Origin: Chloropicon primus
Taxonomy: Eukaryota
Direction: 5' to 3'
NCBI GenBank assembly: GCA_023205875.1
Contig: CP060760.1
Location: 310,001 to 374,000 of the forward strand
DNA: 64,000 nt
In this document: positions 49,698 through 56,475 of the stretch, piece after piece
How the letters are laid out: each line of letters begins with the position of its first letter
Position numbering within the stretch: the first letter of the stretch is position 1
Translations under genes and position numbers: made by a program
Notes under the pieces: generated by a model
Told to the model about the DNA's origin: nothing
The model's input: only the letters and a program-made list of their open reading frames with translations
Database searches by the model: none

Positions 49698-51182
49698 TTA
49701 CAAGGTCAGGAACTCGTAATCCTTTAGAAACTCGGTCACGATAGCCATGGTCTGCTCGACGCCACCCTCCATGTTACTCTCGGCATTTATGACGATGAGT
49801 GGGTCGTGCAGGCTCTGCCTGATGAGAACCCAGCCCTCCCCGTTGAGCACGGAGACTCTCCACCCCTCAAAATTGCTGTCGGCGCTGGCCCATCCCTCCG
49901 GAGCGCTGTCGCCCTCGCAGAACTTCTGGAACCCTTCAACGACGAGAGTGCCGTACCCATCGGGGGCGGATTCGCTGTACTTCACCCTCATCTCGGTGGC
50001 CTCCAGTGGCTCCTCGAAGCCCTCCACGAGCCCGGCCAGGTCTCCGTTCCTCCTGGCCGCCTCGATGATCATCTTGACCGCCATGTAAGCCCCGTCGTCC
50101 AGGTAGTGGTTCTCCGCCATGGCACCGTGGCCGCTCGTCTCGATCATCAGGGGACAGTTCTCGATCTGCTTGCCCTTCTCGATGACGTTCTTATACCCCC
50201 TCTTGAACCTGAGGTGCTTGCCGCCCCTCGACTCGATGAACGCGGTGAGGGCGTCCGAGGTGACCGAGTCCGTCACCACCGTCGCGCCAGGCTTGTCCCT
50301 CAGCGAGATCGCGGCCATCGCCGCGATGAGCCTGTTCTTGTTGAAGGCCACCCCCTTCGAGTCCACAATTGCAGATCGGTCGACGTCCGTATCGAAGATG
50401 ACCCCGAGATCGGCCCCGGTGCTCGCCACGGCCTCCTGGATGCTCCTCATCGCCTCCTCGTTCTCCGGGTTCGGGACGTGGTTGGGAAACATGCCGTCGG
50501 GCTCCAGGAACTGCGAGCCTGCGATATCTGCCCCAAGGGGCTCCAGCACGTCCCTTGCGAAGAACCCTCCCGCCCCATTCCCGGCGTCCACCACAATCTT
50601 CAATCCCTTCAAGGGCATCTCTCCGGCCCCCACCCCCGACACGATCTGGTCCCTCAGAAACCCGGCATAGGTCGGCATGAAGGACGCCGCGGACTTGTGC
50701 CCCCCGCCGCCAGAGGCCTCATCCACCGACCCGTCGATCCCCTCCGCCATCTCCAAGATCTCCGCAATGTCCGCCTTCCCGAGCCCTCCCTCCGGGGTGA
50801 AGAACTTCATCCCGTTCCTGTCGTAGGGAAGGTGGGAGGCCGTCAGCATGATGGAACCAGAGTACTCGAACCCAGGCGTTATCGTGGACATGAACATGGC
50901 TGGCGTGGTGGCCAGGCCCAAGTCGTAAGCCTTGCAACCTGGACCAGCATCCACGATCCCCTTCATGGCCTCCTCGCAGAGCTCCTCCCCCGTGACGCGG
51001 GAGTCCCTTCCAATGCCCACGGACACGTTGCTGGCCTTGTTCCCCTTCCCACCCCTTTGCAGCCTCAACGTGAAAGCTTTCGCGATGTTTCGAACCATCT
51101 TCGGGGTCAGTGTGACCGCTTCCTGCTTGCCGAGGGCGACACCCCTGACGTCCGACCCATTCTGGACCCTCTTGTACGACAT
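49698..51182 (-). CDS. Alpha-D-phosphohexomutase (phosphoglucomutase/phosphomannomutase)
   Basis: QNGSDVRG, phospho-Ser motif TASHLP, metal loop DTDVDR, ETSGH. An alternative ATG lies at 51203. Confidence 0.92.
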   Translation of the reverse strand: MSYKRVQNGSDVRGVALGKQEAVTLTPKMVRNIAKAFTLRLQRGGKGNKASNVSVGIGRDSRVTGEELCEEAMKGIVDAGPGCKAYDLGLATTPAMFMSTITPGFEYSGSIMLTASHLPYDRNGMKFFTPEGGLGKADIAEILEMAEGIDGSVDEASGGGGHKSAASFMPTYAGFLRDQIVSGVGAGEMPLKGLKIVVDAGNGAGGFFARDVLEPLGADIAGSQFLEPDGMFPNHVPNPENEEAMRSIQEAVASTGADLGVIFDTDVDRSAIVDSKGVAFNKNRLIAAMAAISLRDKPGATVVTDSVTSDALTAFIESRGGKHLRFKRGYKNVIEKGKQIENCPLMIETSGHGAMAENHYLDDGAYMAVKMIIEAARRNGDLAGLVEGFEEPLEATEMRVKYSESAPDGYGTLVVEGFQKFCEGDSAPEGWASADSNFEGWRVSVLNGEGWVLIRQSLHDPLIVINAESNMEGGVEQTMAIVTEFLKDYEFLTL

Positions 51183-51459
51183 GAAGCACGCCGCTCCCCT
51201 CATCCTTCGCTCCCTCCAGATATTTGTGAACTTTTGCTTTTCTGCTGCTTCCGCTCTCTTTGGGTGATGATGATGATGATGACAAGGGCAATGAGAGGGA
51301 CGAGGGTGAGGGTGAGGGAAGGAGGATCTGTCCGAGTGATTCACACCCTCTCTGCCTCTCTCTCTCTCTATCTATTTGTGTCCCTGTCTCATTGCGGAGA
51401 ACCTCCATTTCATCTCCAATGATGGGAGGAGAGGAGAGGGAAGCAAACGAGCCACCTTC

Positions 51460-51536
51460 CCCAGCAGAGGGAGTCTTGCCCAGCAGAGGGAGTCTTGCCC
51501 AGCAGAGGGAGTCTTGCCCAGCAGAGGGAGTCTTGC
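51460..51536. repeat. Minisatellite: 4 perfect copies of CCCAGCAGAGGGAGTCTTG (19 bp)
   Basis: Head-to-tail copies at 51460, 51479, 51498 and 51517, with no spacers. Confidence 0.95.
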
Positions 51537-51649
51537 GAGTGCGTGTACAGTCTTTGTCTTGATGAAAACAGCGATCTTACTTGTCTTTACTTGCTGCAGG
51601 GCCCAAGATGATTATTCCAGTGAGGACAGCCTCGTTGTTCGCGTGAGAA

Positions 51650-51710
51650 TCTCCCTTCGGCCACCTCAAGGCCACCAACAGTGGCTTGTAAGAGGCGGCG
51701 TCATTGCGAT
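51650..51710 (-). promoter_or_regulatory. Type II SECIS element in the glutaredoxin 3' UTR
   Basis: Minus strand reads ATGA-c-gccgcctc-ttac-AA-gccac-tgttg-gtggc-ctt-gaggtggc-c-GA. Helix II gccgcctc/gaggtggc and apical minihelix gccac/gtggc both pair. AUGA at 51704-51701, AA at 51687-51686, GA at 51658-51657. Confidence 0.85.
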
Positions 51711-51759
51711 GCTTGGGGCCCGTCCGACGTTGCCTGGGCCCGCCGTGTGGACGTCCGTT

Positions 51760-52446
51760 TTAGGCATCCAACGCACCAACGGCTTGAAGCATAGGCACGA
51801 GCTTGCCTTCCTCCTTCAAGGTCATGATGCCCGGTCCGTCGTTGCATCCACCGATCCCCTCGCCCCCGATGAAGGTGTTGGGCACGGAGGTGCGACCGGT
51901 GCGCTCAGCGAGCTCGGCGCGCAGCGCCTTTCCCCTGTCGCCCATTTCGTTCAGCTCAAACACAGCGTAATCGACCCCTAAGTCGGTCAGCACCTGCTTG
52001 GCTTTCTTGCAGAATGGTCATGTAGTGAAACTAAACGAAGGAGCTTCAGTCAGTCGCCTGGAATCCTTCCCAGAACATCGGATGCTTCGAGGTGCGACTC
52101 ACCTGAACATGACGACAGGGTTCGATGAGATGATGTCCTGGAGTTCGTTCTTCGTCGTCTCCGCGTCGTAGTCGCCTGCCTGCGTCTTGGCCAGCCAGAT
52201 CTTTCCCTGGTTGATGGGCGACGACTGCACGAACTCGGTCAACCCGGAGATGAACTTCCCAGCAGCCCCGCCGAGGAACTCGTCCGCCTCGGCTCCACCA
52301 ACGTCCTCAGGGTCCGCTCTCGCGACCAAGACCCTTCGTGGCCTCCGCGTCGTTGTCGTCGTCGTCGTGCGGGCGGCCCGAGGGGCGCAACCCTTCGGCG
52401 CGACGCTCCTCGCGGTGGACCTCGCCCTCGCCGCCACGGGACTCAT
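51760..52446 (-). CDS. Selenocysteine-containing class I glutaredoxin (UPFC), probably plastid-targeted; complement(join(51760..52030,52103..52446)), Sec TGA at 52020-52018
   Basis: 72-nt GTGAGT...CTGAC...TTTAG intron. Spliced product ...NPVVMFSFTT-U-PFCKKAK...TGRTSVPNTFIGG...IGGCND (204 aa, U119). Downstream SECIS and an Arg/Ala/Thr-rich N-terminus. Confidence 0.88.
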
Positions 52447-52737
52447 TTCCTCTCGCCTCTGCGCTGCTCTACGTCGTCGTCGTCGTCGACAAATCAAGCG
52501 GCGTTATGGGACGTTATCCAAAAATTGCTCTCCATTGCTTTCGATGGATCCAGACATGAATGGATCGGCCCCTTGCTTGCTTTGTAACGCACGCGGCGGT
52601 CTCGTGTCGGCATCGATCGATATTGATGAGGAGAAAAGGCACAGAGTGATATTTGTATCTACAGCTTGCTTATACTCTCTCCTAAGGTTTGTTTTGCTCT
52701 CCGCAACAATAATCTCCCTCCTCTCTCTCTCTCCTCA

Positions 52738-55700
52738 CTACTGCTCCTCCGGCTCCACCATGACGAGCAAATCGCCGATGCTGACGTTATCCTTGCTCTG
52801 GACCGCAACGTGGGCCACGGTGCCGTCAATCGGGCAGCTCACCGTGGTTTCCATCTTCATGGCGCTCAGGACGACCATGGGGTCTCCCGCCTTGATCTGC
52901 TCCCCGGGCTTGCAGTTCACGTCGATGACCTGGCCGGCCATCGGGGCGCCGACGGAGCCCTCGTCGCTCGGGTTCGCCTTCTCCTTGGCCATGCTGAGGG
53001 TGTCGCCGATGGCCACGGTCTCCTCCACGACCTCGATCACCCTTGGAAGCCCGTTGAGCTCGAAGAAGACTTCGCGGGTCCCCGAGGCCTGCCTGTCCCC
53101 GACGGCCTTGAAGACGATCTCGGCCTTCATTCCCTTACCCAGCTCGAGGAGAATCATCTCGTCCGTCTCCAGCGGCCTGAGGAACGCCTTGGTGGGCAAG
53201 ATGGAAACGTCAGAGTACTTCTTCCTCGTCTCATAGAAGTCGTCGAAGACCGAGGGGTACAGGGCCCTCGAGATGACGTTGAGCTCGCTCATGGCCTCCT
53301 TCCCGTACTTGTCCACGATCTTCCCCTCCTCCAGGGCGAAGTTGAAGTCCTCCATCTCGCTTCCTGGCCTGCCAGAGACCGTGGGCTTGCCCTTGAGGAC
53401 CTTCTCCCTCAACTCCTCCGGGAACCCCCCCGGCGGCTGCCCGAGGTAGCCCTGGAAGTATTCCACGACGCTCTTCGGGAAGTCGAGCTTGTCGGCGACG
53501 TCAACGATCGTGCTCTCTGTGAGATTGTTCTGGACAATGAATTGGGCCAGGTCCCCAACGACCTTGCTCGAGGGCGTGACCTTGACAATGTCGCCAAGTA
53601 TGTAGTTCCCCATCCTGTAGGCCTCCTTGACCTCCTCCCACTGCTCCACGAGGCCGTTCTGCATGGCCTGGAACTTGAGGTTGGTGTACTGCCCGCCCGG
53701 CATCTCGTGCTCGTACACCTCGGAGCTGCCCGACTTCATGCCGCTCTCGAACTGGCCGTATTGCGCGCGAACCTGCTCCCAGTAGGTGGAAAGCCTCAAG
53801 ACCCTCGAGGGGTCAAGACCCGTGTCCAAGTCGGTTCCCTTGAAAGCGTTGAGGAGGGATCCCATGCTGGGCTGGGACGTCAGCCCGCTCATGCTGTCGA
53901 CGCAGCAGTCCACCACGTCAGCGCCAGCCTCGGCGGCGGCGATCATGCTCGCCACGCCCATGCCCGGGGTGTCATGGGTGTGCACGTGAATGGGAATGTC
54001 AGGGAACTCCTTTCTCAGGGCGGAGACCAGCATATTCGCGGAGGCTGGCTTCAAGAGCCCCGCCATGTCCTTGATTCCAAGAATGTGGACCCCAGCATCC
54101 ACGAGCTCGCGCGCCAGGTTGAGGTAATAGTCCAAATCATACTTGGGCCTCGAGGGGTCCGTCAAATCGGCCGTGTAGCAAATGGTTCCCTCCGCGACGC
54201 CGTTCGTCTCCAGGACGGCTTCGATGCCAAACTTGAGGTTGTCGATGTAGTTCAACGAATCGAACACCCTGAAGATGTCCACGCCGCACTCGTTGGCCTT
54301 CTTCACGAACTCCTTCACCAGGTTGTCGGGGTAGGAGGTGTACCCGACGGCGTTCACGCCCCTGAGAAGCATCTGGAAAGGAACGTTCGGGATCCTCTTC
54401 CTCAGCTCCTTCAACCTGTCCCACGGGCACTCGTGGAGGAACCTCATGGACACGTCAAAAGTCGCGCCTCCCCAGACCTCCAGACTCATGCAATCCTCCA
54501 AGGCCCAAGCCGAGTAGTCCGCCGCCCCGAGTATGTCGTACGTCCTCACCCTCGTCGCCAGCAGACTCTGGTGCGCGTCCCTCATCGTGGTGTCCGTCAG
54601 CAGCAAGCCCTTGTGCCCCCTGATGCTCTTGGCGAATTCTTCTGGGCCCTTCTCGAGAAGGAGTGGCCTCCAGCCCTTCTTGCCGGCCTGGCCCCTGAAC
54701 TCTTGGGGCACCTTTGGGATCACGGGATCCGGCAGCCCCTTGGGGTACTCGCCGACGGCTCCCGGGTGCTTGGCGCCGTTGACCGCGGTGTGCGCGAGGT
54801 ACCTCAACAGCTTCGAGGGCAAGTCCGTGGGAAGCAAGGGGAAGTCAAAGAGCTCCGGAGTGGACTCGATCAGGGAGGTGTCCGCAGTCCCCGACAGGAA
54901 CTTGGGGTGCTTCAGCACGTTAGTGATGAAAGGCACGTTGGTCCTCACGCCCCTGAGCCTGAACTCGTGGAGGGCGTTCTCCAGCTTCTTGGCGGCCCCC
55001 TGGAAGGTGTGAGCGTGCGCGATGCACTTGACGAGAAGCGAATCGTAGTAAGGAAGCTGACTGCCCCCGGAGGCGATCGCGCCGTCGAGCCTGATGCCTG
55101 GCCCCCCGGGGGTGCGGTACGCCTCTATCCTCCCGCTGTCCGGACGGAAGTCGTCCTCGGGGTTCTCGGAAGTCACGCGGCCCTGGATGGCAAACCCGTC
55201 GCACCTCACCCCCTCCTGGTTCGGAATCCCGATGTCGGTCAAGGAGCTCCCCGTCGCGATCAAGATCTGGCTCTGCACGATGTCGATCCCGGTGATCTCC
55301 TCCGTGATCGTGTGCTCCACCTGGACCCTCGGGTTCACCTCGAGGAAATAGTGGCTGCCGTCGGGCGCGAGCATGAACTCCACCGTCCCGGCGTTCACGT
55401 ACCCGACGTGGCTGGCGATCTTCTTCGCGTCGGCGTACATGGCCTGCCTCGTGGACTCCTTGATCCCCACGCTCGGGGCGACCTCAATGATCTTCTGGTG
55501 CCTCCTCTGCACGCTGCAGTCGCGCTCGTAGAGGTGCACGGTGTTCCCGTACTTGTCCGCGAGGATCTGGATCTCGATGTGCCTCGGGTTCTCGATGTAC
55601 TTCTCGACGAACATCCTTCCGTCCCCGAAGGCCTGGAGGGCCTCGTTGCTCGCCCTCTCGTACGCGGGCTTGAACTCGGCCCCGGACCTCACCACCCTCA

Positions 55701-56475
55701 TCCCCCTGCCTCCGCCTCCCATGGCCGCCTTGATCATGACGGGGAAGCCAATCTCCTCGGCGTAGTTGTACGCGGCGTCCACGTCGAGGCTCTCCTCCTG
55801 CAGGCCAGGAATCACCGGAATCCCGCACTCGATGGCGAGCTCCCTGGCCTGGGTCTTGTCCCCGAACCTTTGGAGGTTCTCCGCCGAGGGGCCGATGAAG
55901 ATGATTCCCTCCTCCTCGCACCGCTTGGCGAACGCGGTGTTCTCGCTCAAGAACCCGTACCCGGGGTGGATGGCGTCCACGTCGTTCTCCTTCGCGATGC
56001 GGATCACGGTGTCGATGTCCAGGTACGCCCCCACCGGGCTCAGCTCCTTCTCCCCGCACTTGAGCACGTACGACTCGTCAGCCTTGTACCTGTGCACCTG
56101 CAGCCTGTCCTCGAAGGAGAAGATGGCGACGGAGCGAATTCCGAGCTCGTGAGCCGCGCGGAACACCCTCGTCGCGATCTCCCCCCTGTTCGCGCACATC
56201 AGCTTCTTAATCCCCTGCGAAGGCGGAGCGAGGTCGGCCAACGACGAGGACGAGGAAGAGGACGAGTCCACGTGCTGGTCGGCGGGCACCTCCCCCACCG
56301 CCCTCGCGACAACGCCACCACGCACCCCCCCGCAGCTCCGGGCGACGGGCAATTGCCCCCTCTGCACGACGGCGGCGGGCTGCCTCCGGGACCCGCCATG
56401 GCTCCCAACACCGCGGCAGGACTTGAGCCCCTGCCCCCTCGAAGAAGCCGCCTTTGCCTTGTTGTGGCCCTTCAT
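52738..56475 (-). CDS. PYC: Pyruvate carboxylase with N-terminal organellar transit peptide
   Basis: BC domain (ANRGEIA, HPGYGFLSEN, RDCSVQRRHQK), CT domain (RDAHQSL, IKDMAG, HTHDT) and biotinyl motif AMKM. Confidence 0.97.
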   Translation of the reverse strand: MKGHNKAKAASSRGQGLKSCRGVGSHGGSRRQPAAVVQRGQLPVARSCGGVRGGVVARAVGEVPADQHVDSSSSSSSSLADLAPPSQGIKKLMCANRGEIATRVFRAAHELGIRSVAIFSFEDRLQVHRYKADESYVLKCGEKELSPVGAYLDIDTVIRIAKENDVDAIHPGYGFLSENTAFAKRCEEEGIIFIGPSAENLQRFGDKTQARELAIECGIPVIPGLQEESLDVDAAYNYAEEIGFPVMIKAAMGGGGRGMRVVRSGAEFKPAYERASNEALQAFGDGRMFVEKYIENPRHIEIQILADKYGNTVHLYERDCSVQRRHQKIIEVAPSVGIKESTRQAMYADAKKIASHVGYVNAGTVEFMLAPDGSHYFLEVNPRVQVEHTITEEITGIDIVQSQILIATGSSLTDIGIPNQEGVRCDGFAIQGRVTSENPEDDFRPDSGRIEAYRTPGGPGIRLDGAIASGGSQLPYYDSLLVKCIAHAHTFQGAAKKLENALHEFRLRGVRTNVPFITNVLKHPKFLSGTADTSLIESTPELFDFPLLPTDLPSKLLRYLAHTAVNGAKHPGAVGEYPKGLPDPVIPKVPQEFRGQAGKKGWRPLLLEKGPEEFAKSIRGHKGLLLTDTTMRDAHQSLLATRVRTYDILGAADYSAWALEDCMSLEVWGGATFDVSMRFLHECPWDRLKELRKRIPNVPFQMLLRGVNAVGYTSYPDNLVKEFVKKANECGVDIFRVFDSLNYIDNLKFGIEAVLETNGVAEGTICYTADLTDPSRPKYDLDYYLNLARELVDAGVHILGIKDMAGLLKPASANMLVSALRKEFPDIPIHVHTHDTPGMGVASMIAAAEAGADVVDCCVDSMSGLTSQPSMGSLLNAFKGTDLDTGLDPSRVLRLSTYWEQVRAQYGQFESGMKSGSSEVYEHEMPGGQYTNLKFQAMQNGLVEQWEEVKEAYRMGNYILGDIVKVTPSSKVVGDLAQFIVQNNLTESTIVDVADKLDFPKSVVEYFQGYLGQPPGGFPEELREKVLKGKPTVSGRPGSEMEDFNFALEEGKIVDKYGKEAMSELNVISRALYPSVFDDFYETRKKYSDVSILPTKAFLRPLETDEMILLELGKGMKAEIVFKAVGDRQASGTREVFFELNGLPRVIEVVEETVAIGDTLSMAKEKANPSDEGSVGAPMAGQVIDVNCKPGEQIKAGDPMVVLSAMKMETTVSCPIDGTVAHVAVQSKDNVSIGDLLVMVEPEEQ

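Follow-up and report, generated by a model that had tools for sequence, protein, structure and literature searches.

A predicted plastid glutaredoxin of the green alga Chloropicon primus with an in-frame UGA at its catalytic position, very probably decoded as selenocysteine

The window analyzed here, a 64,000-nucleotide stretch of Chloropicon primus contig CP060760.1 (class Chloropicophyceae, Chlorophyta), contains a glutaredoxin (GRX) gene whose reading frame is interrupted by a short intron and by a single in-frame TGA (Table 1). In the spliced translation, this TGA occupies codon 119 and is directly followed by PFC, with a TSVP motif starting at residue 162 and a GGC motif at residue 175. 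The intron contains two branch-like words, CTGAC and CTGAA, 23 and 19 nt upstream of its end. The GRX gene is flanked on the same minus strand by a pyruvate carboxylase gene (52738-56475, above the NCBIfam cut-off) and a phosphohexomutase-family gene (49698-51203, below all cut-offs), neither of which shows a sign of a functional link to the GRX. A 19-bp tandem repeat of 4.3 copies (98% matches) is found at 51456-51536, in the interval that separates the GRX 3′ end from its neighbour.

Table 1. Coordinates of the glutaredoxin gene and its features in the window.
Feature	Position	Strand	Description
GRX gene	ATG 52446 to TAA 51760	minus	204 codons after splicing, one internal stop
Exon 1, coding	52103..52446	minus	Transit peptide (predicted), helical N-terminal extension specific to the subfamily, then the first helix and strand of the GRX fold
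Predicted chloroplast transit peptide, residues 1-44	52315..52446	minus	Composition rich in R, A and T
Intron, 72 nt, GT-AG	52031..52102	minus	GTGAGT...TTTAG; in-frame TGA if retained
Exon 2, coding	51760..52030	minus	FTTUPFCK active site, TSVP, GGC, stop TAA 51762-51760
In-frame TGA, codon 119	52018..52020	minus	Putative selenocysteine, catalytic (first) position of CxxC
3′ UTR to limit of transcript contigs	51544..51759	minus	Contigs extend to 51544 (two runs) and 51580 (one run)
SECIS-like element with apical mini-stem	51656..51704	minus	55 nt behind the stop
AUGAC core	51704-51700	minus	Part of SECIS-like element
Helix (8 bp)	51699-51692/51667-51660	minus	Part of SECIS-like element
Unpaired AA	51687-51686	minus	Part of SECIS-like element
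Apical stem (5-6 bp)	51685-51681/51675-51671	minus	Part of SECIS-like element
CGAA	51659-51656	minus	Part of SECIS-like element

A first-pass annotation made from the sequence alone had proposed that splicing of the 72-nt intron joins two open reading frame fragments into one gene. Transcript contigs from all four initial runs, which come from three studies and whose RNA nature is a prediction rather than a record, skip exactly this interval and carry the TGA unaltered. Among four further runs (alignment at 80% likeness), the same joint recurs in two, both recorded as RNA, and a contig from an oligo-dT RNA library has no differences across the TGA; the contig of another of these four, run X10, spans neither the intron nor the TGA. 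Transcript contig cover begins at 52498. The annotation had asked for an RNA check of junction and TGA, and both are confirmed in the contigs; it had also named reads with TGC or TGT (i.e., an assembly error) and splicing that skips the TGA as ways in which its reading could fail, and neither was found, the contigs carrying TGA and the observed splice retaining it. An assembly error as the source of the TGA is thereby ruled out. In addition, of the 57 GT-AG introns that keep the frame and leave no more than one internal stop, none retains PFC without the TGA. The sole mismatch listed for the contigs of the four initial runs is a G>C at 51940, present in two of them and silent at a third codon position of exon 2. 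Supplementary Data 7 of PMC6731263 lists a G>C heterozygous site under the same locus tag, labelled ‘intron’, which is probably position 51940.

The exon 2 product, with C read for U, matches PF00462 with 59.9 bits against a cut-off of 22.9, and its UPFC active site is of the CP[Y/F]C type, as opposed to CGFS, by which class I GRXs are defined (PMC3866529). TSVP and GGC align to GRXs of the PDB, so that the conserved Pro loop and the GG motif are present, and the earlier statement that the remainder of the fold is intact, including the cis-Pro, holds. The best NCBIfam model, GRX_euk (TIGR02180), gives 66.4 bits for exon 2 and 64.3 bits for the whole orthologue P0004, yet neither reaches its cut-off of 87.25, pointing to a divergent subfamily. 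The fold was inspected on the AlphaFold model of P0004, which has Cys at the active site; this model (mean pLDDT 89) contains three helices ahead of the standard GRX fold and superimposes on class I GRX structures with an rmsd of ~1.1 Å over ~107 columns, leaving the extension unmatched.

The best solved relatives of the exon 2 product are plant class I GRXs (GrxC1-C4 and plastid GRXC5/S12; PDB 2e7p, 3fz9, and 3rhb), which are also its best sequence and structure matches and share with it the PF00462 fold, the xP[Y/F]C site, and the extra Cys of GGC. In contrast to these proteins, the Chloropicon GRX would have its catalytic Cys replaced by selenocysteine (Sec), its subfamily has ~50 additional residues, with three predicted helices, preceding the domain, and it reads GGCNDG followed by a short insert where the plant enzymes read GGCD. 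No named land-plant protein is among the matches listed for this GRX. Chloroplast transit peptides are commonly predicted from features such as N-terminal composition. Residues 1-44 lack any acidic residue, the first being residue 45, and the red-lineage orthologues begin with signal-peptide-like N-termini; on these two grounds, the GRX is likely targeted to the plastid. A plastid location, predicted in Chloropicon, is a further feature in common with C5/S12 (PMC8256493).

A homologue search returned 374 matches at E ≤ 0.001, of which 120 full-length homologues were listed, and all 120 have Cys at the column of codon 119 (116 CPFC and four CPYC), a set that is biased toward Cys because protein databases cannot display U. 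The proposal that the TGA stands at the N-terminal catalytic Cys of a CPFC motif is thus borne out. A DNA pattern that requires TGA at this column retrieved 98 metagenome loci, 67 of which belong to the subfamily: 51 contain the whole domain and 16 its N-terminal half only, while the 31 with neither were excluded from the family, most of them looking like chance matches and one, L078, possibly being an intron-split member. The Sec/Cys alternation anticipated at this column is therefore found as TGA in 67 of 98 metagenome loci versus Cys in the listed homologues. The 83 codons 3′ of the TGA are under purifying selection, with pN at 0.10-0.14 and pS at 0.50-0.65 in comparisons with four close TGA relatives. 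Given Cys in every listed homologue and purifying selection behind the TGA, its position at this column is not due to chance.

Protein databases contain products cut at the same point. Ten proteins match exon 1, of which seven end in FSFTT, two in FSFPK, and one at the retained-intron stop; nine of the ten thus stop exactly before the TGA column, including records named for C. primus and C. laureae. A second group of marine relatives (P0138, P0139, and P0173-P0179) is cut at the same column and ends in FSFPK, and probably represents another lineage with the Sec form. A UniRef record under the name Chloropicon primus matches all 118 residues preceding the TGA without a difference. The NCBI model (QDZ22273.1/UPR01489.1, 172 amino acids) places a 168-nt intron at 52102-51935 and thereby loses the active site. 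In C. roscoffensis, the gene is split into WZN65372.1, ending in FSFTT, and WZN65373.1, a 72-residue protein without the motif; similarly, the C. laureae record ends in FSFTT, i.e., at the TGA column. The expectation that standard annotation would truncate or misannotate this gene is therefore realized in all three species, and the public gene models are corrected here. With the defective C. primus model as the query, Supplementary Data 2 of PMC6731263 reports matches only in Chlorella variabilis among 13 green genomes and none in Mamiellales, Chlamydomonas, or Volvox. Such sparse matches to the defective model may be the reason that surveys overlooked the subfamily.

Eukaryotic SECIS elements follow a consensus of an RUGA..AA..GA core on a stem. 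The first-pass annotation had invoked a 3′ UTR SECIS without locating it, and a conserved SECIS-like hairpin is found at 51704-51656. It lies within the transcript contigs of three of the four initial runs, the fourth contig ending at 51720. A strict pattern resting on this consensus has this hairpin as its sole match on both strands of the window, and a relaxed pattern has ten matches, of which this one has the lowest energy; both patterns were composed after the element had been seen. Among orthologues, the strict pattern matched just 6 of 37 UTRs (vs. 1 of 37 reverse complements), and the relaxed one was subsequently adopted. SECIS-like hairpins were found in 17 of 39 orthologue UTRs versus 0 of 39 reverse complements; among 34 distinct UTRs of TGA orthologues, 14 contain one and 20 give no match, compared with 2 of 170 shuffles that contain one. 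An Rfam search (E ≤ 10) returned 14 weak matches, none of them to a SECIS family. The folding z-score of the region, 0.33, is uninformative, the stability being no greater than that of shuffles.

Base pairing in the hairpin is maintained in relatives. Between the window and the relative L060, all 13 pairs are kept, with four double changes and one G-U to G-C change, and the covariation score, computed from these two sequences only, was matched in 28 of 500 shuffles. Pairs were counted on these two because a four-sequence MAFFT alignment set L016 and L062 out of register. In X6, a related transcript, a different sequence fills the 50-nt spacer from the stop to the hairpin, whereas the interval 51614-51709 has only four substitutions (one changing G-U to G-C, two within the apical loop, and one outside the element) together with six gap letters whose positions are partly shown. 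L016 and L062, both close TGA orthologues, have at the hairpin positions (L016:861-932 and L062:767-838, minus strand) a similar hairpin in which one A replaces the AA, and L016 has U rather than a purine before UGA; these are possible non-canonical SECIS elements. The 3′ UTR of L073 contains two near-identical SECIS-like hairpins, at offsets 185 and 372, behind one TGA orthologue.

In eukaryotes, SBP2 and eEFSec insert Sec at UGA by a standard decoding reaction, and TGA otherwise terminates translation in this window, as the stop of 8 of 22 long open reading frames, so that it is not a reassigned codon. These 22 frames contain 237 TGY codons for Cys and 152 TGG codons for Trp. The supplement of PMC6731263 assigns PSTK, SBP2, SEPSECS, selenophosphate synthetase (SPS), and eEFSec to C. 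primus, PSTK and SBP2 as secondary KO matches, and a C. primus tRNA-Sec is listed in a supplementary figure of PMC7678280. Thus, the absence of tRNA-Sec, eEFSec, and SBP2, named earlier as an outcome that would count against a selenoprotein, does not apply, all three being annotated in these supplements. Similarly, the transcriptome of strain CCMP1205, which is C. primus according to PMC12301720, was reported with eEFSec, SecS, and SPS and with zero Sec proteins (PMC6627142). ARAGORN found no tRNA within the 64-kb window.

Three other readings of the locus deserve consideration. In the public model, the 168-nt intron removes the UGA and leaves a 172-residue protein without an active site; this intron is an in-frame GT-AG choice that reproduces the NCBI protein (P0140) exactly. 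However, its joint is absent from the C. primus runs, in which only the 72-nt joint is seen (contig assembly loses rare splice forms), and the interval 51935-52030 is covered by contigs at full depth. Moreover, the model would discard a motif conserved in 120 of 120 homologues, and the transcripts carry the silent third-position G>C at 51940, inside the supposed intron. As the main splice form, the 168-nt intron is refuted by the 72-nt joint, and we give the public model practically no credence.

If the UGA were instead a true stop, the locus would be a pseudogene, or would encode a 118-residue N-terminal piece and a separate downstream reading frame. TGA does end more than a third of the long reading frames in the window, and both fragments stand as separate proteins in databases, but dozens of divergent orthologues share this TGA, purifying selection acts on the frame 3′ of it, the listed downstream fragments begin after the PFC motif, and a conserved SECIS-like hairpin follows, which together make termination very improbable. 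The homologous residue is Cys, and the identity of the inserted residue is deduced, which leaves some room for a UGA read as Cys or Trp by reassignment or leaky read-through. Against this stand the ordinary use of TGA as a stop and of TGY and TGG for the two amino acids, as well as the SECIS-like element and the annotated Sec machinery, and we consider such decoding highly unlikely.

The gene therefore very probably encodes a 204-residue class I (dithiol) GRX with a UPFC site, in which UGA 119 would be read as Sec by way of a 3′ UTR SECIS, and which is predicted to be imported into the chloroplast. Transcription, the splice, the UGA, the conserved frame, and the conserved hairpin are directly supported here, and the attributes expected of a selenoprotein occur together: a UGA in the mature mRNA, a conserved Cys column, conserved coding on both sides, and a SECIS-like hairpin, the last recognized by an in-house pattern and covariation. 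On this evidence, the locus is best understood as the Sec-GRX that the first-pass annotation had suggested, with Sec itself inferred.

In the mechanism we envisage, the SECIS would bind SBP2 and recruit eEFSec with Sec-tRNA in the cytosol, leading to insertion of Sec at codon 119, and the transit peptide would be cut near residue 44 after plastid import. In class I GRXs, the first active-site residue (CysA), which is indispensable for catalysis, attacks protein-glutathione adducts, and either glutathione or the second Cys regenerates the enzyme (PMC3866529). By extension, the Sec119 selenolate would attack protein-glutathione mixed disulfides, and regeneration could proceed by the monothiol route, with glutathione, or by the dithiol route, via a Sec119-Cys122 selenenylsulfide. 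In plants, PRXIIE and MSRB1 are recycled by class I GRXs of the plastid (PMC8256493), and, by analogy with these land-plant enzymes, a plastid peroxiredoxin and a methionine sulfoxide reductase would be likely clients. Under selenium shortage, the UGA may terminate translation, leaving an inactive 118-residue piece.

Sec-GRXs as a class are already known. Jiang et al. 2020 (PMC7539508) found Sec-containing GRX only in SAR and haptophyte species and none in Plantae, and its main text does not name Chloropicon. Like these proteins, the Chloropicon GRX is eukaryotic, alternates between Sec and Cys, and would be decoded through a 3′ UTR SECIS. It probably belongs to the same subfamily, because TGA orthologues are placed among Cys sequences from named diatoms and Pavlovales; a Cys orthologue from Tribonema bears the NCBI name ‘selenoprotein’. 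As a difference, the Chloropicon-type Sec sequences form a clade separate from the supported one that holds the other Sec sequences. The bacterial Sec-GRX of the Clostridium oremlandii type (PMC13188914) likewise has UxxC in a PF00462 domain, but relies on bacterial decoding and has neither transit peptide nor intron, and the closest relatives of the Chloropicon GRX are algal. According to a review, Sec raises catalytic efficiency in the bacterial enzyme (PMC13188914). The description of the class as rare in the first-pass annotation has to be revised, Sec-GRXs being known from SAR algae and haptophytes (PMC7539508) and from bacteria (PMC13188914), with TGA forms common in marine metagenomes.

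Fig. S2 of PMC6627142 shows a ‘grx’ family in which one or more genes carry Sec, for genomes that include Aureococcus, Thalassiosira, and Emiliania, and a green Sec form may be among its entries; the word ‘glutaredoxin’ is absent from its main text. The main texts of two Chloropicon genome papers contain neither ‘selen’ nor ‘glutaredoxin’, and the examined sections of PMC8003979 and PMC10298544 do not mention the subfamily. Literature on Chloropicon selenoproteins or green-algal Sec-GRX, within a scope outside most subscription journals, yielded nothing on this gene. The new element thus appears to be a Sec-GRX in a green alga, with the decoding mechanism itself standard, which would extend Sec-GRXs to the green lineage, against the finding of none in Plantae in PMC7539508. 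The naturally occurring Sec and Cys orthologues of a single plastid-type GRX can be paired to test what selenium contributes to thiol-disulfide catalysis, and the Chloropicon gene suggests a tie between plastid redox control in open-ocean picoalgae and selenium supply.

The origin of the Sec form was approached with an unrooted 54-row tree of 141 columns, in which the Sec/Cys column was masked. Of the 160 rows of a first tree, computed in quick mode, 106 were dropped (mostly near-duplicates and members of a sister group with Cys alone), and the groups were defined once that first tree had been seen; the trees contained no C5/S12 sequences, and the lineage labels of metagenome loci derive from named tree neighbours only. 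The window protein groups with four metagenome loci in one clade (100/98), which attaches at an open fork shared with Cys orthologues of named green algae. Every remaining Sec row falls into a supported clade (97/94) with Cys rows from named Pavlovales and diatoms, and this clade excludes the Chloropicon-type clade. Uniting the latter with the haptophyte-like Sec rows was rejected (p-AU 0.006), whereas placing it as sister to the whole 97/94 clade (p-AU 0.31) or to its diatom-like half (0.30) was not. Since both sister positions stand, ancient retention of Sec with many losses, or an early transfer, remain open. An independent gain in Chloropicon and its close relatives, combining a Cys-to-Sec change with a new SECIS in a plastid GRX, is a tentative reading that we rate as rather doubtful; if true, it would be a rare de novo gain of Sec, convergent at this site with the Sec of haptophytes and diatoms, and would make this the first Sec-GRX of the green lineage. 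All named green algae recovered with the subfamily (Mesostigma, Neomeris, Raphidocelis, Sanguina, and Pterosperma) have the Cys form only. The Mesostigma Cys orthologue (P0006, 354 amino acids) also contains PF04134, indicating a fusion or a merged gene model.
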